NCBI GenBank assembly: GCA_027050205.1 | Contig: JALUCS010000089.1 | Span: 1-10,386 of the forward strand | DNA: 10,386 nucleotides | From: a candidate division WOR-3 bacterium | Lineage (GTDB): Bacteria; Hydrothermota; Hydrothermia; LBFQ01 | Direction of reading: 5' to 3' | Shown: piece after piece, positions 1 through 10,386 of the stretch | Position numbering within the stretch: position 1 is the stretch's first letter | How the letters are laid out: the number at the start of each line of letters is the position of its first letter | Position numbers and translations under genes: made by a program | The notes under the pieces: generated by a model | Told to the model about the DNA's origin: nothing | Databases searched by the model: none | Seen by the model: only the letters and a program-made list of their open reading frames with translations

Positions 1-801
1 CGATTTTTGAATGTGTGTTCTATCGGCGGATTCCAAACCCTTAGAGGAGGGCCGCTTCCCCCGTTAGGTCTTCAACGCCGTATCCGATATTGAAATGCGC
101 TGCAAGGTCGGGCGTTGTAATATTGGGTCATCATGTAAAAATGATGCAATTTTTTAGGTTTTTGAGTTAATACATCAAAATTTCGCCACAAAATTGATGT
201 CTGTGGTAGTTTATTACCTTGAAGGTGCAACGCCAAAATTCACACCGAGGATGACAAGGTGTTTGTCGGATACGCATCTTCCGAACCCTTCACCATTCCG
301 GGACGATAAGGTACGGGCAGCAGTTTATATTCTACAAGCGGGATGTAGGTAATTTTGTAGTTTCACAAAGGCAAAATCAAAATTCTTCCCAAAATATGAC
401 GTTTACAGTCGTATACAGCCTTAATACCCTTTCCGATACCCCGCCCCGAAGTCCCAAGATCTTGAGATGTCTCGGTTCTCCGTATTGCAGATGCTATTGA
501 CGATTTAAAGGTAGCCGCATCAGTACTGCTTTGTGGATCCTTCTGGACTCCGTTCAAAACCCGTAATGGAGATTGCGAAAATCTTAAAGTTAGGCTTTCA
601 GGTCTATGAAGTACGGTTTTCGGTTTTTGGAGGCAGCCTTTACGTTGATGGAGCCGACAGGTAATAGATGGGGTGCTGGGCGACGGCGTAATTGGGAGCG
701 CAAGACCAAAGCCGTTGGAGTCCGACCTATCGCACCCTCCATCATTCAATTGTGGGTAGCCGGGATGTACTTTCCCCCTCCACCTGCACGCAGTTCCCCT
801 T

Positions 802-807
802 TAAAAT
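802..807 (+). promoter_or_regulatory. Putative sigma70 -10 element (TAAAAT) for the tRNA-Gly/rpmB/tamB unit
   Basis: TAAAAT lies 11 nt upstream of the tRNA 5' end. Its context TAAAATACCCCCCT closely matches TATAATACCCACCT upstream of tRNA-Lys. No clear -35 seen. Confidence 0.65.
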
Positions 808-818
808 ACCCCCCTCAA

Positions 819-892
819 GCGGCCGTAGCTCAACTTGGTAGAGCACCAGCCTTCCAAGCTGGGGGTTGCGGGTTCGAGTCCCGTCGGCCGCT
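819..892 (+). tRNA. tRNA-Gly (anticodon TCC), CCA not encoded
   Basis: Acceptor stem GCGGCCG/CGGCCGC, D arm GCTC..GAGC, anticodon arm CCAGC-CTTCCAA-GCTGG, T arm GCGGG-TTCGAGT-CCCGT, discriminator T892, followed by CTA instead of CCA. Confidence 0.97.
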
Positions 893-894
893 CT

Positions 895-1077
895 ATGGCT
901 AGGGTCTGTGAGATCTGCGGGAAGGGTCCCATGACGGGACACCGTATAAGCCACTCACACCGTCTGACGAAGAGGAGGTTCTACCCCAACCTCCGTAAGG
1001 CCAAAGTGCGTATCAACGGCACCGTCAAGGTCGCCCGCGTCTGCACCAAGTGCTATAGGAAGTACAGGGTGCTATAA
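895..1077 (+). CDS. rpmB: 50S ribosomal protein L28 (zinc-binding C+ type), 60 aa
   Basis: [33 protein letters not shown]...VCTKC is a typical L28 with two CxxC motifs. The ATG at 895 is the likely start, because the ORF-track start at 835 lies inside the tRNA. Confidence 0.96.
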
Positions 1078-4000
1078 AGTACCTCCGCCTAAGGTTCCGA
1101 TTACTCCGTCTCTACCTTCATAAGAGGCGTTGGTGGCTGTTAGGATACTTACTGTTCTTCCTGCTGTCGGTTTTTGTCGTTCTCAACTATCAGGCCATCC
1201 TGCGGAGGGTTTTGAGCCGCGCCCTCGGCGTTCCCGTCGGTTTTGAGGTAGAGAGCCTTAGCCTCAACCACGTCGCCTTGAGGAACCTTCGCATGGGGAG
1301 GTCGGTAAGGGTTTCCCGTCTCCTCATTCTCTTCTATCCCGACGCCCTCCTCCTCCGTAGGGAACTGGAGTACGTCAGGGCCGTAGGGGTCAGGGTGAGC
1401 GTCCCGGATATGGCCAGGGAGTTCTCACAGGGGAAGGAGGAATCCGGGAAGGGGAAGGGAGGTAAAGGGGGTGGGGCATCCCCCTTCGCCGTTAAAGAGG
1501 TGGCCATCTACGATTTGGGGGTCGTCCCCACCGACTCCGTCGAGGTGAGGGTCAAGAGCAGCCGTTTCTCCTACCAGGCCGACGGTGGGAGGGTGAAGGT
1601 CTCAAACCTGCGGCTGCGGGGCCTTACGGTCAGCACCCTACCCCCCTTCAGGGTGGATAGCGCCTTCGGGGATATGGTCACGAGGCGGGGGACCCTGTAC
1701 GTACGGCTCTCCGCCGTCGGTAAGTACGACACCTTGGCCATAGATTTGAGGGACGGGCGTATGGCCTCCTACTCCGTCGGGGATACGGCGAGTACCCGGT
1801 ACGACTTCCGGGAGCTTAGCGTGATGGGTGGAGGTATCGCCCTCTCGGTCAAGAGGGGGAAAGCCCTCTGGAAGGTTTCCCCGACTACGAACCGGGTAGG
1901 CTTCTCGGTTGGGGAGGTCGTCTGGGCCGACACCCTCAAGGTTGAGGAGATTGAGGGGAACCTCGTCCTGGACAGCCTCCCAGACTGGAGGTTGGAGGGC
2001 GTTAGGGGACGGGCGTACGGTGGTAGGTTCAAGTTGGATTTGAGTTCGGACAGCTCCAAGGTCTTCAGGGTGGGGTTGGACGTCAGGGGTGTCCGGTGGG
2101 GCGGCCTACTGACGGTCAGCGGCGGTGTCCTCTTCTCTTTAGATTTGCGGGATTCCTCTCTCGTAGGCGGGGGACGCCTGGACTACCTAAGGTTGAACAA
2201 CCCGGCGACGGAGTTAGGCGGTATGGACTTTAGCTTTGAGAGTAGGGGCCTCAAGAGGTACGACTTCAACCTTCTGGGGGACTTCGTGTCCGCCTACGGT
2301 TATTACGACCTCTCAAATGACGAGGGGAGCCTCACCTTCAACTTGGACCGCCCACTTAGGGGGATCTCCTACGGGGACTTCCGCCTATACACCTTCTCGG
2401 CGGCGGGTAAGGCCGTCAAGAGGGGGAGTCTCCTCAAGGTGAGCCTATCCGATGCCAAGTTGTGGTACGCCGTCTACGACACCCTAAGGTTGGACAGCCT
2501 CTTCGCGCGAAATCTGAACTTAGAGTTGGACCTGAACCGGCCGCAGAAGGTCAAGAGCAGCGGGGAGGTCACCCTCTTCTACTCCCAGAGGGATTCGGCC
2601 GTGGCGAGTGTAAGGTACGCCTACTCACCTTCTTCCTTCGCCTTGGAGGGGGACGTCCGTACGGCCACCTACGGTTCCCTCCGGCTTTCGGCCGCGGGGA
2701 GGGTACCGGACAGCATCCTCCTATCCTCCGTATCCTACGATAACCGGAGCCTCCACGTGCGGCTTAGGGACATCCTCTTCCGCTACGGGGATACCCTCCT
2801 CCTAACGGTACCCGAAAATACCCTCCTCGGTGGCAAGGTCAGGGGAACGGTGGGTCTGGTAGCCGACTCCTCCGGGTACTCCTTCCTTGAAGGCTCACAG
2901 GTGACCCTCCTCCACGTCAACCCCACCCCCGTATTCGGTACCTTCTTCCCCGACTTAGACCTCCTCGTGGAGGACGTCTCCTTGAGGTTGGAGCCTCACG
3001 GGAGCGTCGGGGAGGCCGAAGTGAATGGGGAGCTGAAGGTGAAGGGGGTATCCTACGGGGATATACCGATAGATTCCCTTAGGGCCAACTATCACGTGGG
3101 GGGGGACGTGGTGGGGGTGGATAGCGCCTTCGTCTGGGTAGAGAACTCCGCCGTTGAGGTGGAGGTGGGTAGGTACTACCCTCCTCTAAAGGCTCTGTAC
3201 GTCTTCGCCCGCTCCCGGAACTTCCCCACCGACCGATTCATGCCCTTCCTCCTGCCCGACTCCGGTCGTCTGACCTTTGAGCTTTCCGTCTCCGGACGCA
3301 TAGACTCCCCCAACGTACTCGGTTTCCTGTACTGGACGGCCAAGAGCTTGGACCTCAACGGGAATTTCGTTAGGAGGCCAAGCATATACGCAGTAGGTAT
3401 GGGGAACCGCCTCGTACTTCCCGCCTTCAAAGACACCAACGTGGCCTTTTTGGGTGGTGGAAAGGTGAGGTTTAACGGCTCCATAAGTACCGCCCTGACC
3501 GTAGATAGCCTGAAGGTGAGCCTTGAGAAGGCCGAGGTGCAGGCCGACCCCGACATCACGGCGGTCCTCAACGGCGACTTGAAGATAACCGGAGACCTGA
3601 AAAGGGAAATTATGGTGGCCGGGGAGGTGGTGGCGGACGAGGTGGAGATCTTCAAACCCCTGACCGAAATGGCGACGGGGGGAGCGACGTCCTCCTCCTC
3701 CAAGCCTGTGGTCCTCTACGACATACACTTCTACGCCCCCCGGAGGATCTTCCTGAACAGCACCCTAACCTCGCAGGCCTTGACCGGCGCCCTTTTGGAG
3801 ATAGACGCCGAGCTTTCGGCGGATATAAACGCCCAGAAGCTGTCCCCCACCCTCTCGTCCCTCTCCGGCACCCTCTCCTTCCTGCGGGGGAACGTCTATA
3901 TTGTGGATAAGGTATTCCACATAGACCGTGGCGAGATCGTCCTCTACGGCACGGAGGGGACCATAAACATCCTATCGTCGGCGACCTTCCCCCGGAGCGT

Positions 4001-4406
4001 TCAGAACGGTCTCACCGACAGCGTCCGGGTTTTCGTTAGCATAGAGGGGGATATGCAGCACCCCAACGTTCGGATATGGAGCCAGCCCTATATGTCCACG
4101 GGGGAGATCTTGGCACTGATAGTCGGCGGAAGCAACGTCCTCGGCTTCCTAAGCAGGGGCCTGAAGTGGGGGCTGAACCTAAGCGAACTATCCATAAAGC
4201 AGACCCCTACGAGCTACCAGCTCCTGTTCGGTACCTACATCACCCGCCGGGTCTATCTCAAATCCACCCTCTCCACCACGGGGGACTTCAACAGCATAAG
4301 GACCCTCTACTTCGTGAATCCCCACCTCTCCATCTACGGGGAGCGGATACAGGAGCCGGAAGGTACGAGGTACGGGGTGGGTATAAACTACCGTATAAGG
4401 TTCTGA
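1074..4406 (+). CDS. tamB: TamB/DUF490 (AsmA-like clan) translocation/assembly protein, about 1110 aa if started at ATA 1074 (ORF track starts at TTG 1212)
   Basis: Long protein rich in alternating beta-strand patterns, with a TamB-like C-terminus ([21 protein letters not shown]...[10 protein letters not shown]...[11 protein letters not shown]). The frame is open upstream of 1212 to a TAG at 1056 and encodes a basic segment plus TM anchor ([23 protein letters not shown]). The start position is uncertain. Confidence 0.8.
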
Positions 4407-4416
4407 CCGTCAGGCT

Positions 4417-4422
4417 TAACAT
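4417..4422 (+). promoter_or_regulatory. Putative -10 element (TAACAT) of a leaderless transcript
   Basis: TANNNT exactly 8 nt (TTCCGGTT) before ATG 4431, with no SD. Confidence 0.55.
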
Positions 4423-4430
4423 TTCCGGTT

Positions 4431-5375
4431 ATGCTTCTGCTCTTAGGCCAGATCCTCGTTTTGAGGGACAGGGGAGCCTTTTACTCCGACACCATAGCAG
4501 CAGTGCTTAAGGGGAAGTTTCAAGGGTACGCCTACGTTATGGAATGGGAGAACGTCCCGCCGGGCAGGAGTCCGGAGGAGTTCTGGAGAACCTTCTGGAA
4601 GAGGGCCGGCCAGCGGTACGAGTTCGTGGTCGTCCTGGGACCGAAGTCCCTGAAGTTCGCCTTAGAAAACATCAAGGATAGACCTGTCTTCTACCTTCAG
4701 AATTACCAGAGGCCGTACCGCACCCCTCCCAACTTCGCCTCTCTCTACGTAGCCGTCTCCTATCCAAAGCAACTTTCCGGAATCGTATGCACCTTCAAGG
4801 AGGCCAAGCTCTTGGGCATCCTGACCCACAGGGAGGAGTGGGATCTGCTCTCCAACGTATTCACCGGGGACTATCCGGGGGCTATGGAGGTGCATATAAG
4901 GGTGGTAAGTACCCCATCCCAGATGGAGGAGGCCATAGCCGACCTTAAGGACGTTGGGGTAAAGGTAGTGTGGGTCCCGTCCGCCTCCCGCCTCAACACC
5001 GGCGACTACATCCGGAACCTATTGAAGGCCTCCCACAGGAAGAAGGTAGGGGTCTTCGTTGATCAGATAAGTAAGGTGCGACAGAAGGGAGGGGCGTTGG
5101 GGGCTTGGGAGCCTACCCCCGGAGAGGTAGGGGAGGCCCTCTCCAACTTCCTCGCCGAGATCAGGGAAGCGTCCGCTCCCTACGTTAAGGTGAGGGAGGA
5201 TACAGTAGGAGGGTCCGTAGTGAAACGGAAGGAGGTAAACTGGAGGGCCTTCCTCAAACCCCACTACGTCCGGGAGATCAAGGGCGGTAGGGCCGCCATA
5301 AACCTGAACCTCGTCAGGGCGTTCAGGCTCAACGCCGTAGCACAGTGTGTGGAGAGGTTTGACGAAAAGTACTGA
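4431..5375 (+). CDS. Putative ABC-transporter-type substrate-binding protein (ABC_sub_bind / periplasmic binding protein type I-like), 314 aa
   Basis: Alternating alpha/beta pattern with family-like segments: FVVVLGPKSL, RPVFY, KLLGIL, VVWVP, GGALGAW, AINLNLVRAFRL. Codon usage matches host genes. Confidence 0.65.
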   Translation: MLLLLGQILVLRDRGAFYSDTIAAVLKGKFQGYAYVMEWENVPPGRSPEEFWRTFWKRAGQRYEFVVVLGPKSLKFALENIKDRPVFYLQNYQRPYRTPPNFASLYVAVSYPKQLSGIVCTFKEAKLLGILTHREEWDLLSNVFTGDYPGAMEVHIRVVSTPSQMEEAIADLKDVGVKVVWVPSASRLNTGDYIRNLLKASHRKKVGVFVDQISKVRQKGGALGAWEPTPGEVGEALSNFLAEIREASAPYVKVREDTVGGSVVKRKEVNWRAFLKPHYVREIKGGRAAINLNLVRAFRLNAVAQCVERFDEKY

Positions 5376-5385
5376 CTTACGGGGA

Positions 5386-5391
5386 TAAAAT
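5386..5391 (+). promoter_or_regulatory. Putative -10 element (TAAAAT) of a leaderless transcript
   Basis: TAAAAT exactly 8 nt (CCACCCTT) before ATG 5400, with no SD at normal spacing. Confidence 0.6.
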
Positions 5392-5399
5392 CCACCCTT

Positions 5400-5855
5400 A
5401 TGCGTGGAATCCTGAAGGCACTCCTTTTAGGTAGTCTCTTAGTCGGATGCGGTGGAGGTACCCTCTCCGACGAGGCCGCCATTAAGAAGGTTAAGGCCAA
5501 CCTAACGGAGGCCCAGAAGGAGATCGTAGCAGGGGGTAAGGGGGTGGCCGTCATAGTGGCCCAGTACGAGGGCAAGAGGGCGAAGGACCCGCAGTTCATG
5601 AGTAAGGTAATAAAGGCAGCCGCCAGCGGAAACGTGGCCTACCTCCCGGAGGTCGCCCGACCGGACACGTCCGGATGGAGGGTTGAGAGGAAGGGGGACA
5701 CCGTCTTCGTGATATACTTCGCCCGCGCCCTGAACGTACCCACGAAGAAGGTCTACGAGGTTTCCTGGAGGTGGAGGATAACCGGAGGGGGCAAGTGGGT
5801 GAAGTTTGAAGGGAAACTGCCCGAAGTTAGGGTCGTAGAGGGTGAGGGAAAGTAA
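5400..5855 (+). CDS. Hypothetical lipoprotein, 151 aa
   Basis: Signal peptide with lipobox MRGILKALLLGSLLVG-C. Host-like codon usage. Confidence 0.8.
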   Translation: MRGILKALLLGSLLVGCGGGTLSDEAAIKKVKANLTEAQKEIVAGGKGVAVIVAQYEGKRAKDPQFMSKVIKAAASGNVAYLPEVARPDTSGWRVERKGDTVFVIYFARALNVPTKKVYEVSWRWRITGGGKWVKFEGKLPEVRVVEGEGK

Positions 5856-6852
5856 GAGGATAGCCATCCCCCTCCTCTCCCTCGGAAGTTTCGGAGGTGT
5901 CAGGAAACTTTTGGAGTTGGCTAACGGTCTGGTGGGGTACGGCTACGACGTTACCCTTCTCTACCCGGAGGGGAGGGGGGAGACCCCTTTTTACATAAAG
6001 CCGGAGGTAAGGAGGGTAGAGGTACCCGGCAGGAACAGGCTCCGCGCCCTCCTCTCATACGTCCCCCTGTTGAGGGAGTACGACGTCGTCCTCCTGAACT
6101 TTTGGCCAACGGCTTACCTCTTCCCCTTCGCCCGCAGGCCCATCTACTTCGTCCAAGACCTTGAGTACAGGTTCCACGCCAACCCCCTCCTCCGCCTTCT
6201 AGCCAAGCTCACCTACTCCTTCCCCATCCCGAAGGTGACCTACAACCCGGCCCTGGCGAGGGCCGTAGGGACCGACCTCGTCATCCCCGCTGGGGTGGAT
6301 AAGTCCCACTTCTACCCCGACCCCGATCCCTACCTTAGGGGAGGCAGCGGGAAGGTGGTTATGTACATGCCCAGAAAGGAACGAAGGAAAGGGGCCGACA
6401 TATTCGCCGAGGCTATTAGGAGACTCAAGGGGTGCTGTGAGTTTGAGGTGTGGTTGGTAGGGGGGCCGGAGGGCCTACTAAGCGACCTCTCCGTACCGGT
6501 CAGGAGGTTCAGGCCCAAGGGGGACGATGAACTCCGTCGCCTGTACTCCACGGCCGACGTCTTCGTCCTGACCTCCCGGAGCGAGGGTCTCGGCTTCCCC
6601 GTTATGGAGGCACTGGCCTGCGGTACCCCAGCGGTAGCGACGGAAGTGGATGGGAGGGAAGTGTGGGACCTACCCGGCATAAAGGTGGTAGCCACAGAGC
6701 CGGAGGCCGTCTCCCTCGGAATTCTGGAGGTCCTAAAGGAGCCGGAGAAGTGGAGATCCAAGGCAAACGAGGGAAGGAAGGGGGTTCCGGACGTCTCGGA
6801 CATGGTGGCCTCTTTCAGAACCATCCTCACGACCCACATTTCCGCTCTATAA
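5842..6852 (+). CDS. Glycosyltransferase family 4 (GT-B fold), 336 aa
   Basis: N-terminal GGVRKLLELANGL...GYDVTL, YFVQDLE, RKGAD, and the ExxxxxxxE motif YSTADVFVLTSRSEGLGFPVMEALACGTP. The GTG start overlaps the lipoprotein gene by 14 nt. Confidence 0.92.
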   Translation: MRESKRIAIPLLSLGSFGGVRKLLELANGLVGYGYDVTLLYPEGRGETPFYIKPEVRRVEVPGRNRLRALLSYVPLLREYDVVLLNFWPTAYLFPFARRPIYFVQDLEYRFHANPLLRLLAKLTYSFPIPKVTYNPALARAVGTDLVIPAGVDKSHFYPDPDPYLRGGSGKVVMYMPRKERRKGADIFAEAIRRLKGCCEFEVWLVGGPEGLLSDLSVPVRRFRPKGDDELRRLYSTADVFVLTSRSEGLGFPVMEALACGTPAVATEVDGREVWDLPGIKVVATEPEAVSLGILEVLKEPEKWRSKANEGRKGVPDVSDMVASFRTILTTHISAL

Positions 6853-6853
6853 T
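6848..6853 (+). promoter_or_regulatory. Consensus -10 element (TATAAT) for tRNA-Lys/ompA-like/ribH, overlapping the GT4 stop codon
   Basis: Perfect TATAAT 14 nt upstream of the tRNA, with the same downstream ACCC.CCT context as the tRNA-Gly promoter. Confidence 0.7.
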
Positions 6854-6867
6854 ACCCACCTACAGAT

Positions 6868-6940
6868 GCCCCGCTAGCTCAGCAGGCAGAGCAGCGGATT
6901 CTTAATCCGCGGGTCGGGGGTTCGAGTCCCTCGCGGGGCA
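6868..6940 (+). tRNA. tRNA-Lys (anticodon CTT), CCA not encoded
   Basis: Acceptor GCCCCGC/GCGGGGC, D arm GCTC..GAGC, anticodon arm GCGGA-TTCTTAA-TCCGC, T arm GGGGG-TTCGAGT-CCCTC, discriminator A6940, followed by CTT. Confidence 0.95.
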
Positions 6941-6943
6941 CTT

Positions 6944-8554
6944 ATGACCACGCTACTTATCCTCGGGTACCTCTCCAACACGGGGGCGAGTGGGTACTTT
7001 GACATTTTTGATTGGAGAGCCTCCACGGAGAAGCTGGTTAGCGGTGGTTATCTCAACTACCTTGAGACCACCATATACGCCGAGAAAATATGGAGTAGCC
7101 CTTATGGGATACAGGACTTCCTCCTCGGTTGGGGTTCCATAAACACCGTTCCCATCCGGAACCTTGAAATCTTCGCCACTCTGAAGGGTATAAACTGGTT
7201 AAACAAGGGACAGCTGGAGGACACCGCCCAGCTCAAAAGGTGGTTCGGTGGAATGAGGGACTTTGAGATGGGGGTGAAGTACCAGTTCCTCGGCCGCCGT
7301 AACTGGGGTCTCTCCGGTGTCCTAAGCCTCCTCCTCCCCACCGGTGAGAAGCAGGAGGGTGAGATACAGGTAGGTACCACCTACACCACCAACTTCAAGG
7401 TCCGTGAGGGTCTCCTCGGTGGTCGCCTCGGTGTATCCGCCGGCTACGACTTCATCAGCGAGCAGTGGTCCACCCGCCTTATGGCCAACCTAGCTCTGGG
7501 CTTCGGTTATAACGTAGATACCAAGCAGGCCGGTTTCGGCGACAATCCCCTCTTTGTGGCCTTCGGTATATTCACGTCCTACTACGACCTTGAGAGCGGT
7601 TTTGAGTTAAAGTATTACGGTCCCTTGAGCTTCAACAGCGACTTCCTCTTCGCTACCCCTATGATAAGGTACAGGTTCTTCAACGGAGGTCTCGTCCTCT
7701 CCGCCGGCACCAACGTCTCCATGAACTACTACGTCAACAGGTACTACCTCTCTCCCGATCAGCCGGAGAAGTGGGAGTGGAACTGGGAGCTGTTCGCCGG
7801 CGCCCACGTCTCTCCCGCCCGTATAGCCGAGAGGATGTACGGCCCGGTGGGTGGAACTGGTCCCGCCGTGTTTGCCGGTGGGCCAGCCGTCGTTCAGGCG
7901 GTTGAGGAGATGGGTCCGAGGACCCTCCTCGTGATAGTCGTGGACTCCCTCTCCGGTGAGCCTATTCCGGGTGCCAAGGTCCAGATCGTGGGGAAGGTAA
8001 GCACGGAAGGTACGACGGACGAGAGTGGTACCTACAGGAACGACAGCCTACCCGCCTCCAACTACCTCCTAACCATCTCCAAGGACGAGGAGAACTACCA
8101 TCCCATAGACGTTGGCGTAAATCTTGAGACGGACGCCGTCGTCAAGGTCAAGCTCTACAAGAAGCTCTCCCGCAAGCCCAAGCTCGTAGCGGTCGTGTAC
8201 TTTGACACCGATAAGACCATCATCAAGCCCAAGTACCAGAAGGAGCTGAACAAGGTCGGCGAGATCCTGATGAAGGAGCCGTACGCCAAGGTCATCATAA
8301 GGGGTCATGCCGACCGCAGGGGTGGAGCCTTCTACAACGAGCTCCTGTCTAAGAAGAGGGCGCTCGCCGTCAAGGAGTACCTCATAAGGCAGTTTGATTT
8401 GGACGAGAGCAGGTTTGAGGAGGTCGCCAACTACACCATCTTTGAGCCTACGGGTAAGGGCCTGTCCAAGGACCGTAGGGTTGAGGTGTACGTTCTCCTT
8501 CCCGAAGGTAGCGAGAAGAACACGAAGCAGGAAGGTGAGGGCCAGCAGAAGTGA
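6944..8554 (+). CDS. OmpA-family outer-membrane protein: N-terminal putative beta-barrel, carboxypeptidase-regulatory-like (prealbumin-fold) domain, C-terminal OmpA peptidoglycan-binding domain, 536 aa
   Basis: The C-terminal VYFDTDK...IIRGHADRRG...YNELLSKKRALAVKEYL...DRRVEV is the OmpA_C motif. The middle segment VVDSLSGEPIPGAKV...TTDESGTY...Y.LTISK is carboxypeptidase-regulatory-like. The N-terminal region is rich in aromatic and Gly residues with amphipathic strands. Confidence 0.88.
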   Translation: MTTLLILGYLSNTGASGYFDIFDWRASTEKLVSGGYLNYLETTIYAEKIWSSPYGIQDFLLGWGSINTVPIRNLEIFATLKGINWLNKGQLEDTAQLKRWFGGMRDFEMGVKYQFLGRRNWGLSGVLSLLLPTGEKQEGEIQVGTTYTTNFKVREGLLGGRLGVSAGYDFISEQWSTRLMANLALGFGYNVDTKQAGFGDNPLFVAFGIFTSYYDLESGFELKYYGPLSFNSDFLFATPMIRYRFFNGGLVLSAGTNVSMNYYVNRYYLSPDQPEKWEWNWELFAGAHVSPARIAERMYGPVGGTGPAVFAGGPAVVQAVEEMGPRTLLVIVVDSLSGEPIPGAKVQIVGKVSTEGTTDESGTYRNDSLPASNYLLTISKDEENYHPIDVGVNLETDAVVKVKLYKKLSRKPKLVAVVYFDTDKTIIKPKYQKELNKVGEILMKEPYAKVIIRGHADRRGGAFYNELLSKKRALAVKEYLIRQFDLDESRFEEVANYTIFEPTGKGLSKDRRVEVYVLLPEGSEKNTKQEGEGQQK

Positions 8555-8955
8555 TAGGGATAGTGGTGAGCCGCTTCAACTCTATCGTTACGGAGCGGCT
8601 CGTTGAGGGTGCAGAGAGGAAGTTGAAGGAAGCCGGGGTCCCGTACGAAGTGGTATGGGTCCCCGGCTCTTTTGAGTTACCCCAGGCCATCTCCCTACTG
8701 TGGAACAGGTACGACGCCTTCGTAGCCATAGGGTGTATAGTAAAGGGGGAGACGGCCCACTGGGAACATCTATCTTCAGCCGTGATCTCCTCCCTGATGG
8801 ACCTCGCCGTCAAAGGTAGGAAACCTATAGGTCTGGCCGTCCTCACCGTTGGCTCTATAGAGCAGGGTTTGAACAGGGCGGGGGGTAAGTTCGGGAACAA
8901 GGGGGAGGAGGCGGCGGAGGCGGTCTTGAGCCTTATAAATCTACCGAAGCGTTGA
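8551..8955 (+). CDS. ribH: 6,7-dimethyl-8-ribityllumazine synthase, 134 aa
   Basis: IGIVVSRFN, VPGSFELP, YDAFVAIGCIVKGETAH, EQGLNRAGGKFGNKGEEAA motifs. The GTG start overlaps the upstream stop (GTGA). Confidence 0.96.
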   Translation: MIGIVVSRFNSIVTERLVEGAERKLKEAGVPYEVVWVPGSFELPQAISLLWNRYDAFVAIGCIVKGETAHWEHLSSAVISSLMDLAVKGRKPIGLAVLTVGSIEQGLNRAGGKFGNKGEEAAEAVLSLINLPKR

Positions 8956-9012
8956 AGTTTGGATGTACGGCATTCTCGCCCGAACTTATCCGTTTAAGTC
9001 TGATGAGGGATT

Positions 9013-9038
9013 GCGGGGACTGCTCCTTACAGTTCCGC
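9013..9038 (+). terminator. GC-rich hairpin downstream of ribH, possible weak terminator
   Basis: GCGGGGACTG-(CTCCTTA)-CAGTTCCGC forms 9 bp with one bulge. There is no proper U-tract. Confidence 0.3.
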
Positions 9039-9040
9039 CT

Positions 9041-9046
9041 TACGAT
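9041..9046 (+). promoter_or_regulatory. Putative -10 element (TACGAT) of a leaderless transcript
   Basis: TANNNT exactly 8 nt (TCTAAGTT) before ATG 9055, the same geometry as at 4431 and 5400. Confidence 0.55.
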
Positions 9047-9054
9047 TCTAAGTT

Positions 9055-9564
9055 ATGACCTTTGACATAACGTCTAACCTGTGGCCTAAGAACGAGAGGT
9101 ACGCCTTCTTCAGGGACAAGAAGATAGTCCCTATAAAACAGGTGGGACCTCACTGCGCCTCAACCGTCCTGGCCATGCTCACGGGACAGACCCCGGAGTA
9201 CTTCCAGGGGAGGATCAACACGTAGGACCCCATATCTTGGTCCGACGCCCTAAAGGAGTTTGGCATGAAGCTCGCCTACTGCCCCTTTGACATCCGGAAG
9301 TTGAAGTTCTATATGAAGGAGCTGGTGGAGTTGGACGACCTCTTCCTCCTGTCCTACTACACGCCGAGGGATCCGAAGGTCCTCCTTAGGGATCCCGACA
9401 GCAGGGGATGGTTGGCCGGCTCACACGTCGTGATCCTCCACCGGGATAAGATAATAGACCCGCAAACTGGTAGGATAACGGACGCCTTTTCCCACAGGTG
9501 CAACGAGCGGCACACCAAGAGGATATTCAGGGTCGTCCCGAAGGATTACCACAGGGGGTTGTGA
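9055..9564 (+). pseudogene. Papain-like/C39-like cysteine peptidase ORF (169 codons) interrupted by in-frame TAG at 9223-9225; pseudogene, sequence error or recoded stop
   Basis: Manual translation: MTFDITSNLWPKNERYAFFRDKKIVPIKQVGPHCASTVLAMLTGQTPEYFQGRINT*DPISWSDALKEFGMKLAY...GSHVVILHRDKIIDPQTG.... It shows the C39-like Q-x4-C...LAML, H-V-V and I-D-P catalytic pattern. The ORF track shows only the 9265..9564 part. Confidence 0.75.
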
Positions 9565-9565
9565 T

Positions 9566-10378
9566 TTATATCTTTGACGTAAGCATCTCCCTCAAGTCCT
9601 CCAGAAGAGCCTCAAAACCGGCGGTATTTACGAAGAAGTTCCCCTTGTTCCCTTTCAGATACCGCTCTATATCCCTCCGTTGCCTTCCGGGTTTGCTGTT
9701 ATCGTCCTTGTGCAGTATGAAGTTGTTGAAGTAAAGCCCATCCATAAAGGATACGTAATGCACATCATCCCTATCCTCGGAGTACCTTATGAACTCTATC
9801 ACCTCCAGAACCTGTTTATCTTGCGCCCCTCCTGCCTCCTTCACGTGTTTGGCTTCTATAATGAAGAAATGCTTTCCGGATTTTAGCACCAGATCCGGTT
9901 CCTTCCCCTGATGCCCCCTCCCGAATTCGTACCTTATACCGAGTGCTTTTCTGAACTCCTCAAACGTATTCTCATCTCCCCCGTCAGGCAGAAAATACCC
10001 CGTAGGTGAGGCCATAAGCGACGTTATGTCCATAATATGGGGGACCTTTCCCAGGGTCCTTAGAATCAAACTCAAGAGTTTGTTGGTACCGACCTGTCCC
10101 TTCTTCCGGGATACACCGCTATCGTAGAGGGCCTGAACGACCACGTTGCTGTACCCCATCCTATCGTAAAGAGAGCGTCTCCTTCCGCAGTACTCCCGTA
10201 CGAGGGCCTCCAACATTCCTTTCCTGTCGGATAGTTTCCTAAAGAGCGAGTAGGAAAGATCTAACACCTTCCAGAAAGCCACGAACTCCGTATATTGGAT
10301 GTTTCCAACCCCCGTTATTATCCCGTAGATCTCGTCCAGTATCTTCGCCGCCGCGTCGCTATCCTTCTCCACCATCAC
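9566..10378 (-). CDS. Putative type II restriction endonuclease (PD-(D/E)xK nuclease), at least 269 aa
   Basis: EPDLVL...FIIEAKHVKEAGGAQDKQ (PD..ExK followed by GGxQ) and YVSFMDG. The frame stays open to the window edge, so the start (GTG 10378 / ATG 10375) is unconfirmed. Confidence 0.7.
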   Translation of the reverse strand: MMVEKDSDAAAKILDEIYGIITGVGNIQYTEFVAFWKVLDLSYSLFRKLSDRKGMLEALVREYCGRRRSLYDRMGYSNVVVQALYDSGVSRKKGQVGTNKLLSLILRTLGKVPHIMDITSLMASPTGYFLPDGGDENTFEEFRKALGIRYEFGRGHQGKEPDLVLKSGKHFFIIEAKHVKEAGGAQDKQVLEVIEFIRYSEDRDDVHYVSFMDGLYFNNFILHKDDNSKPGRQRRDIERYLKGNKGNFFVNTAGFEALLEDLREMLTSKI

Positions 10379-10386
10379 ACAATAGG

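Follow-up and report, generated by a model that had tools for sequence, protein, structure and literature searches.

tRNA genes that run up to start codons in a WOR-3 bacterium and its order: a possible case of tRNA punctuation behind near-leaderless mRNAs

How translation might begin at a start codon that lies three nucleotides behind a tRNA gene is the question raised by the tRNA-Lys(CUU)-ompA junction of a candidate division WOR-3 bacterium. The junction lies in a stretch of 10,386 nucleotides, hereafter the window (positions 1 to 10,386, forward strand, of contig JALUCS010000089.1, assembly GCA_027050205.1), which carries two tRNA genes, tRNA-Gly(UCC) and tRNA-Lys(CUU). As far as the accessible text of the report goes, Candidatus Caldipriscus has been placed in the WOR-3 lineage from hot springs (PMC12285271). 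A first-pass annotation of the window had proposed that promoter, tRNA and leaderless coding sequence form a general module rather than a product of chance compaction, and we examined this proposal at the locus, in the source genome and in its relatives.

The tRNA-Lys(CUU)-ompA junction

The features of the window to which the text refers are the following.

819 to 892, + strand: tRNA-Gly(UCC), discriminator T892, followed by a 2-nt spacer CT
895 to 1077, + strand: rpmB (ribosomal protein L28), ATG 2 nt past the tRNA-Gly discriminator; residue 1 falls on position 1 of the TIGR00009 profile
5842 to 6852, + strand: GT4 glycosyltransferase gene, with its stop inside the tRNA-Lys promoter
6848 to 6853, + strand: TATAAT, -10 element of the tRNA-Lys promoter, invariant in 11/11 orthologous loci, matrix score 10.5
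6868 to 6940, + strand: tRNA-Lys(CUU), CCA-less, discriminator A6940, the sole Lys-CUU gene among the 43 tRNAs called
6935 to 6938, + strand: GGGG run on the acceptor stem's 3' side, Shine-Dalgarno (SD)-like but paired
6941 to 6943, + strand: CTT, a 3-nt Y-U-U trailer that is both the tRNA 3' trailer and the entire ompA leader; YTT in 11/11 loci
6944 to 8554, + strand: ompA, OmpA-domain envelope protein of 536 aa, ATG 6944, Pfam CarboxypepD_reg and OmpA
8551 to 8955, + strand: ribH (lumazine synthase), whose start overlaps the ompA stop

The architecture described by the first-pass annotation was confirmed at this locus: the acceptor stem, a perfect 7-bp helix (GCCCCGC/GCGGGGC), ends with C6939, and the discriminator A6940 is followed by C-T-T instead of an encoded CCA and then by ATG 6944 (ARAGORN bounds the gene at 6868-6941, that is, with C6941 counted in). 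The upstream glycosyltransferase gene ends with a TAA (6850-6852) that falls within the TATAAT of the tRNA promoter, and from the 13-nt distance between hexamer and 5' end at the RNase P RNA gene, transcription of the tRNA-Lys unit probably starts near 6861. It likely extends over ompA into ribH. The OmpA-domain protein begins with a very short, hydrophobic N-terminus, its N-terminal ~320 aa match no Pfam family, and its orthologues are 61-89% identical. Behind ATG 6944, the next in-frame ATG, GTG or TTG stands at 7253, which is codon 104 and lies inside the conserved region, so no usable downstream start is offered. Besides, the -10 element, the tRNA and the spacer of exactly 3 nt are retained at all 11 loci where the family has an orthologue (two genera; none in G005), while the promoter-to-tRNA spacing and the first codons differ among them; three homologues from family f5, which have no tRNA in front but a promoter of their own and AGGAGG, carry their Met at about the same aligned place. 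ATG 6944 is therefore well supported.

Two established routes of initiation were searched for at this start. The TANNNT that marks promoter-derived leaderless genes 12-16 nt before the start is lacking, as had been noted at first reading, and a -10 matrix trained on the genome scores -20.9 at the leaderless position, against +6.8 for the 5th percentile of its training sites. An accessible complement of the anti-SD sequence 5-10 nt upstream, as expected of an SD-led tRNA-mRNA operon, was not found either; the single candidate, GGGG, is paired in the acceptor stem.

The second tRNA of the window stands in the same position before rpmB, and this tRNA-Gly-rpmB pairing recurs in the related genome G007 with a 3-nt spacer. 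Elsewhere in the window, rpmB is followed by a TamB-family protein of at least 1064 aa (1212-4406), whose true start is probably upstream of 1212. The frame 9055-9564 has TACGAT at the leaderless position and ATG 9055, and is interrupted by an in-frame TAG (9223-9225); its second half matches no Pfam family, and it may be a pseudogene or reflect a sequencing error. Positions 1-800 and 9566-10378 are AT-richer than the remainder, and the latter stretch holds a 270-aa reverse-strand ORF without a Pfam match that was possibly acquired. Proteins of the window that look exported (6944-6976, 4431-4451) begin with nothing more than Met and some 5-9 hydrophobic residues, a basic stretch being absent, and a rough filter found such short hydrophobic N-termini at 43 of 468 starts genome-wide.

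Start codons behind tRNAs in the genome and in its order

The source genome (G000; 2.05 Mb, 93.5% complete) makes wide use of near-leaderless starts. Among 468 unambiguous starts from a purpose-made gene caller, 206 had TANNNT 11-17 nt upstream (peak 12-15), 163 were coupled to an upstream stop, 56 had an SD core, two followed a tRNA and 41 had none of these; for the last group, inspection by eye revealed no consistent hairpin just upstream. SD-led and coupled starts thus coexist with leaderless ones, and the anti-SD of the 16S rRNA is intact. Since the TANNNT position peaks 12-16 nt ahead of the start and the distance at the RNase P RNA gene is 13 nt, leaders should be about 0-3 nt long, the same range as the tRNA offsets. 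The first-pass annotation had also taken the TT before the ATG as a signature of promoter-type leaderless starts, and here we disagree: TT precedes only 21/206 of these starts (T at -1 in 93/206; TTG as start codon in 27/206), whereas U75 and U76 each occur in 41/43 tRNA trailers, whether a gene follows or not. The TT is better explained as part of the tRNA Y-U-U trailer.

CCA is encoded by none of the 43 tRNAs and not by the tmRNA, and the 44 trailers read CTT (29), TTT (11), CCT (2), CTA (1) and TTC (1). We defined a tight start as a start codon at most 4 nt past the tRNA discriminator. Such starts, which belong to functionally unrelated genes, follow 11/43 tRNAs at 1-4 nt, where 1.3-1.8% would be expected per intergenic position (binomial P ~5e-9 for 10/43). 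The automatic gene caller likewise gave 11 for the 44 tRNA and tmRNA ends, but its set lacked rpmG and included a false cmk start, and the final list was corrected by family models: a TTG 1 nt after tRNA-Pro(CGG) was rejected as the cmk start, as the cmk family match begins at residues 37-40. The genes with family models are rpmG, rpmB, murA, prs, gatC, rrf2, nuoH and a Gfo/Idh oxidoreductase; the models cover the first residues of the first six, and those for nuoH and the Gfo/Idh gene begin ahead of the next possible start. Orthologues back ompA and the gene of a 366-aa protein, while the start of the eleventh case, after tRNA-Leu(UAA), is uncertain.

Five further starts (murI, purB, pdxT, mnmA and one unknown) lie 6-12 nt from a tRNA, and for all 16 starts within 12 nt no -10 element was detected at the leaderless position (score -9.4 or lower). 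Beyond 20 nt, 9/11 starts have a -10 of their own, one has a strong SD and one has neither. These data bear on two other explanations of the ompA start. In one, a promoter inside the tRNA gene would give rise to an independent primary transcript, leaderless and with its 5' end at 6944 or close by, and leaderless promoters are indeed common in this genome; however, at the 11 tight junctions the best scores at the needed position range from -15.8 to -28.2 with the -10 matrix alone, against the same threshold of +6.8, so that we regard an internal promoter as highly improbable. In the other, GGGG would serve as an SD sequence during transient opening of the stem or in a misfolded tRNA. The run lies 5 nt before the ATG, its duplex with the intact anti-SD would be worth -5.0 kcal/mol if free, and the idea is nevertheless very unlikely: the G run is the acceptor stem itself, locked with a predicted unpaired probability of 0.02-0.06 at 70 C as the first-pass annotation had supposed, and 10/11 tight junctions, most of which have C-rich 3' strands, offer no anti-SD pairing better than -1.7 kcal/mol. 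For the GC stem next to such a start, more than 90% pairing is predicted at this temperature.

A -10 element of their own stands just upstream of 38/42 scorable tRNAs. A U-run of at least 5 was found at 0/11 tight junctions and at 15/23 other tRNAs (P=5e-4). The tRNAs without a read-through gene, and the RNase P RNA (L229), which terminates in a helix and U7, run straight into 5-7 terminal U without an additional hairpin; we infer that the stem of the stable RNA itself acts as the terminator hairpin. The sole called tRNAs for Trp, Asp, Cys, Lys(UUU) and Lys(CUU) would all have to be freed from an mRNA-linked precursor.

The comparison with relatives covered 41 genomes of the class, 19 from the order (12 in family f1, to which the source genome belongs, and seven in the sister family f2) and 22 from outside. 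In nine relatives, the tRNA ends were surveyed by a uniform rule on the best 30 of 43-46 tRNA loci each, with Leu, Ser and Tyr under-sampled; outside the order the survey took in f3, f4, f5, f7, f8 and f10. Within the order, tight starts amounted to 16/31 in G007, 11/33 in G013 and 2/32 in G016 among these best-scoring loci, the last indicating that some members of the order show the trait only weakly. In the six other families, of similar genome size, there were none among 200 tRNAs (0/32 in f5). The commonest spacers in the order are 1 and 3 nt, and homology supports one start with a spacer of 0, whereas in the six families the spacer is never below 7 nt and peaks at 10-15 nt. There, 36/42 of the starts that follow tRNAs at 7-16 nt, across A/U-rich spacers, have neither SD nor promoter, and such starts (e.g. 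L151-L180, L282-L311) may constitute a distinct initiation mode.

Packing by chance is largely refuted and is the least probable explanation of all. It would require a true start further downstream, or a TTG or ATG that follows the U-rich trailer by accident. The accident does happen once, as the rejected cmk start illustrates, and may account for the uncertain tRNA-Leu(UAA) case; against it stand the distance to codon 104 in ompA, the fixed spacer at its 11 loci, the family models that match six genes from their first residues, and the absence of the layout from equally compact sister families, in line with the first-pass view. Related genomes are not independent, and the order-versus-class contrast could be a single evolutionary event.

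The pairings of tRNA and gene shift within the order: nuoH follows Val-CAC in the source genome and Val-GAC in G007, and G007 places ahcY, asd and fadD behind tRNAs, which the source genome does not. The tRNA-Gln-tuf junction of G007 is of the classical type, with an SD and 19 nt. In a swap test on 43 tRNA-linked starts from three relatives, eight had no match in the source genome, ten were tRNA-linked there too, and 17 of the 25 remaining orthologues had a -10 at the leaderless position, which is modest support because genes that lead an operon need a promoter anyway. TTG accounts for 21/29 tight starts in the relatives, and 10/12 such TTG genes start with ATG or GTG behind a promoter in the source genome, so the trailer U's appear to be preserved even though the start codon is weakened.

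RNA-processing enzymes and the fate of the junction

We conclude that the layout is real, conserved and lineage-wide. The proposed promoter-tRNA-leaderless module stands at the DNA level, genome-wide, order-wide and through changing pairings, but RNase Z, the cutter that it implied, was not found. TIGR02651 gave no match over its cut-off in any of the 41 genomes and none in the source genome, and a profile built from the best, arm-less RNase Z-like sequences of the class detected nothing alike there. Five PF12706 matches in the source genome belong to other metallo-beta-lactamase (MBL) families; RNase Z-like matches of ~245 aa in f3 and f8 are, by length and alignment, too short for the tRNA-binding arm, and those of ~240 aa inside the order are patchily distributed. 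RNase E/G and RNase J were also missing over cut-off from all 41 genomes. The class is without RNase Z or RNase E/G over cut-off although most of its tRNAs lack CCA. RNase PH was found in 0/19 order genomes and 22/22 outside, a pattern that amounts to one evolutionary event. The source genome does carry RNase P RNA (RF00010), an RnpA-like protein, RNase Y, PNPase, RNase R, a YhaM-like protein, a beta-CASP protein, Rho, and two PolyA_pol/CCA-type nucleotidyltransferases, both below NCBIfam cut-offs. RNase P RNA was not found in G013; HARP occurs in 7/7 f2 genomes, and G020 has both.

Several other nucleases were considered as the cutter and rejected by their distribution: HARP is absent from f1 (0/12), the beta-CASP and YhaM-like proteins from f2 (0/7 each), a 294-aa MBL protein occurs in 16/19 order genomes and 4/22 outside, and an NYN protein, in 37/41 genomes, does not track the trait. 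RNase III looked specific to the order (18/19 versus 3/22), but it is the native rnc in degenerate form and also occurs in f5, where tight starts are missing. Two of its four acidic positions, which we take to be catalytic, are lost. In this degenerate gene (G000:C125, L408:3013-4257), no stop codon separates RNase III from an in-frame PfpI/DJ-1 protein with a TATAAT of its own within the RNase III frame, so that fused and stand-alone forms are both possible; the arrangement recurs in 6/6 loci of genus g1 among those listed. A motif scan, which served for candidate picking alone, had overlooked both RNase III and a second RNB protein.

The latter protein is catalytically intact in 19/19 order genomes and occurs outside the order only in f5 and f6. 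In the source genome (G000:C122), it has an RNB domain with intact catalytic aspartates in the motif IDDAETEDIDDA and no cold-shock domains, and PF00773 is its sole domain match, unlike RNase R. Its closest solved relative and best PDB match is the Deinococcus enzyme DrII (2R7D, E 8.5e-36), which has been described, in the accessible portion of the report, as able to accommodate pre-tRNA (PMC5758563). We consider it a DrII-type RNase II and a candidate trailer trimmer.

On the sequence evidence, we slightly favour the view that cleavage at the discriminator releases an almost leaderless mRNA. A single transcript starting near 6861 would cover tRNA-Lys, ompA and ribH; RNase P would take off the ~7-nt leader, and an endonuclease would cut at A6940 or within 1-3 nt of it, leaving a 5'-monophosphate mRNA (CUU-AUG...) that starts almost at its AUG and could be read by the leaderless route. 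The tRNA would receive CCA from the two CCA-type nucleotidyltransferases, the DrII-type RNase II may stand in for the missing RNase PH by tidying residual trailers, and the absence of RNase J and E/G may let the cut mRNA survive. The U-run is likely a switch, 5-7 U meaning a transcription stop and 1-3 U read-through into the gene. Ribosomes need about 10-15 nt upstream of the start on uncut RNA, their footprint. A cut at the junction would explain why the spacers equal the leader lengths of the genome, why the trailer U's persist even where this leaves UUG as the start codon, and why the sister families stay beyond roughly this footprint. The cutter is not RNase Z; our leading guesses are RNase Y or RNase P itself, and 3' cuts without tRNase Z have a precedent in P. 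acnes, as far as the available text tells (PMC3848588). Against a cut, none of the endonucleases compared (HARP, beta-CASP, NYN, degenerate RNase III) tracks the trait; the DrII-type exonuclease is present in 19/19 order genomes, so that tRNAs could be finished without a precise cut; and G016 has few tight starts though it, too, is without RNase PH.

A rather unlikely, though serious, alternative is that the junction is never cut. Ribosomes would then initiate with the tRNA attached as a 5' cap, the end of the acceptor stem opening, perhaps with the help of S1; RNase Y, RNase R and PNPase would later remove the message, and a DrII-type enzyme would trim to the discriminator. This is consistent with the lack of RNase Z, E/G and PH matches in the order, with RNase R in 41/41 genomes beside the order-wide intact RNB protein, with S1 matches in 5/5 sister-family genomes (a count from f2, not from the source genome), and with the one-step tRNA 3' maturation by RNase R described for Mycoplasma genitalium in the part of the report available (PMC12320835). 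However, no single-stranded entry is left when only 0-4 nt separate the start from a 7-bp GC stem predicted to stay folded at 70 C, and sister families that run tRNAs into SD-less genes hold 7-15 nt. A changed trimming enzyme alone would not explain the collapse to 0-4 nt, and the DrII type is also present in f5 and f6, the former without tight starts. The two accounts can mix, with a cut first and DrII-type trimming after.

Returning to the cut at the discriminator, a wider proposal is more tentative still: throughout the order, many mRNA 5' ends, including those of the essential murA, prs, gatC, nuoH, rpmB and rpmG, might be made by an exact post-discriminator cut, performed by an endonuclease other than RNase Z, E/G, J, HARP or beta-CASP, with the U-run switching between termination and read-through.

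Relation to known systems and biological meaning

Animal mitochondrial transcripts are the classical case of what is called tRNA punctuation. There, according to the accessible text of two reports, RNase P and RNase Z/ELAC2 release the tRNAs (PMC3790967, PMC11996679). The likeness to the order is considerable: CCA-less tRNA genes abut start codons on the same strand (11/43 in the source genome), excision of the tRNA would leave the message leaderless, non-AUG starts are frequent, CCA is not encoded and nucleotidyltransferase genes are present, and RNase P genes occur in the source genome, with HARP instead in the sister family (as genes only). Unlike in mitochondria, no RNase Z/ELAC2 was found over cut-off in the 41 genomes; in place of long polycistrons there are about 40 short units, most tRNAs having their own -10, and the 3' side alone punctuates; and the organism is a free-living bacterium in which SD and coupled starts coexist. 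The system resembles mitochondrial punctuation on its 3' side but is not a member of it, as RNase Z and two-sided punctuation both fail.

Among bacteria, E. coli has the tRNA-mRNA co-transcripts metY-nusA-infB and thrT-tufB, which likewise place a tRNA and a protein gene on one transcript; these genes keep a leader and an SD, in contrast to the 0-4 nt of the order. In Actinobacteria, the available portions of three reports (PMC4633059, PMC3848588, PMC4681348) describe promoter-derived leaderless mRNAs in which TANNNT immediately precedes many starts, leaders measure 0-3 nt and GUG and UUG are tolerated, all of which is similar here, except that the tRNA junctions have no promoter at that place and would owe their 5' end to processing. 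RNase Z-independent tRNA 3' maturation has been reported for RNase R in M. genitalium (PMC12320835), DrII in Deinococcus (PMC5758563), an endonuclease in P. acnes (PMC3848588) and trailer cutting by HARP (PMC12217051); the absence of detectable RNase Z and the presence of a DrII-type enzyme agree with these, but none of these reports, in the text accessible to us, ties the step to the making of an mRNA 5' end, and HARP is absent from f1. The literature searched, which took in few subscription papers, yielded no report of bacterial tRNA punctuation. New here are the spacer floor of 7 nt in the outgroups, the finding that RNase PH is lost where a DrII-type enzyme occurs throughout the order, the probable switch function of the U-run, and the shift to TTG.

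For annotation, SD-less TTG starts such as those of the relatives are easily shifted downstream by gene callers. The contrast between order and class (0-4 versus 7-15 nt, RNase PH lost and the DrII type kept) provides a ready comparative experiment. Either surviving model breaks a rule, be it an RNase Z-like cut by a new nuclease or ribosomal initiation at a distance of 0-4 nt to a folded tRNA. tRNA punctuation has been treated as a feature of organelles; if a cut at the discriminator is true, processed monophosphate leaderless mRNAs can carry essential genes in a free-living bacterium, and the order would offer, in a prokaryote, a model of the possible origin of the mitochondrial system.
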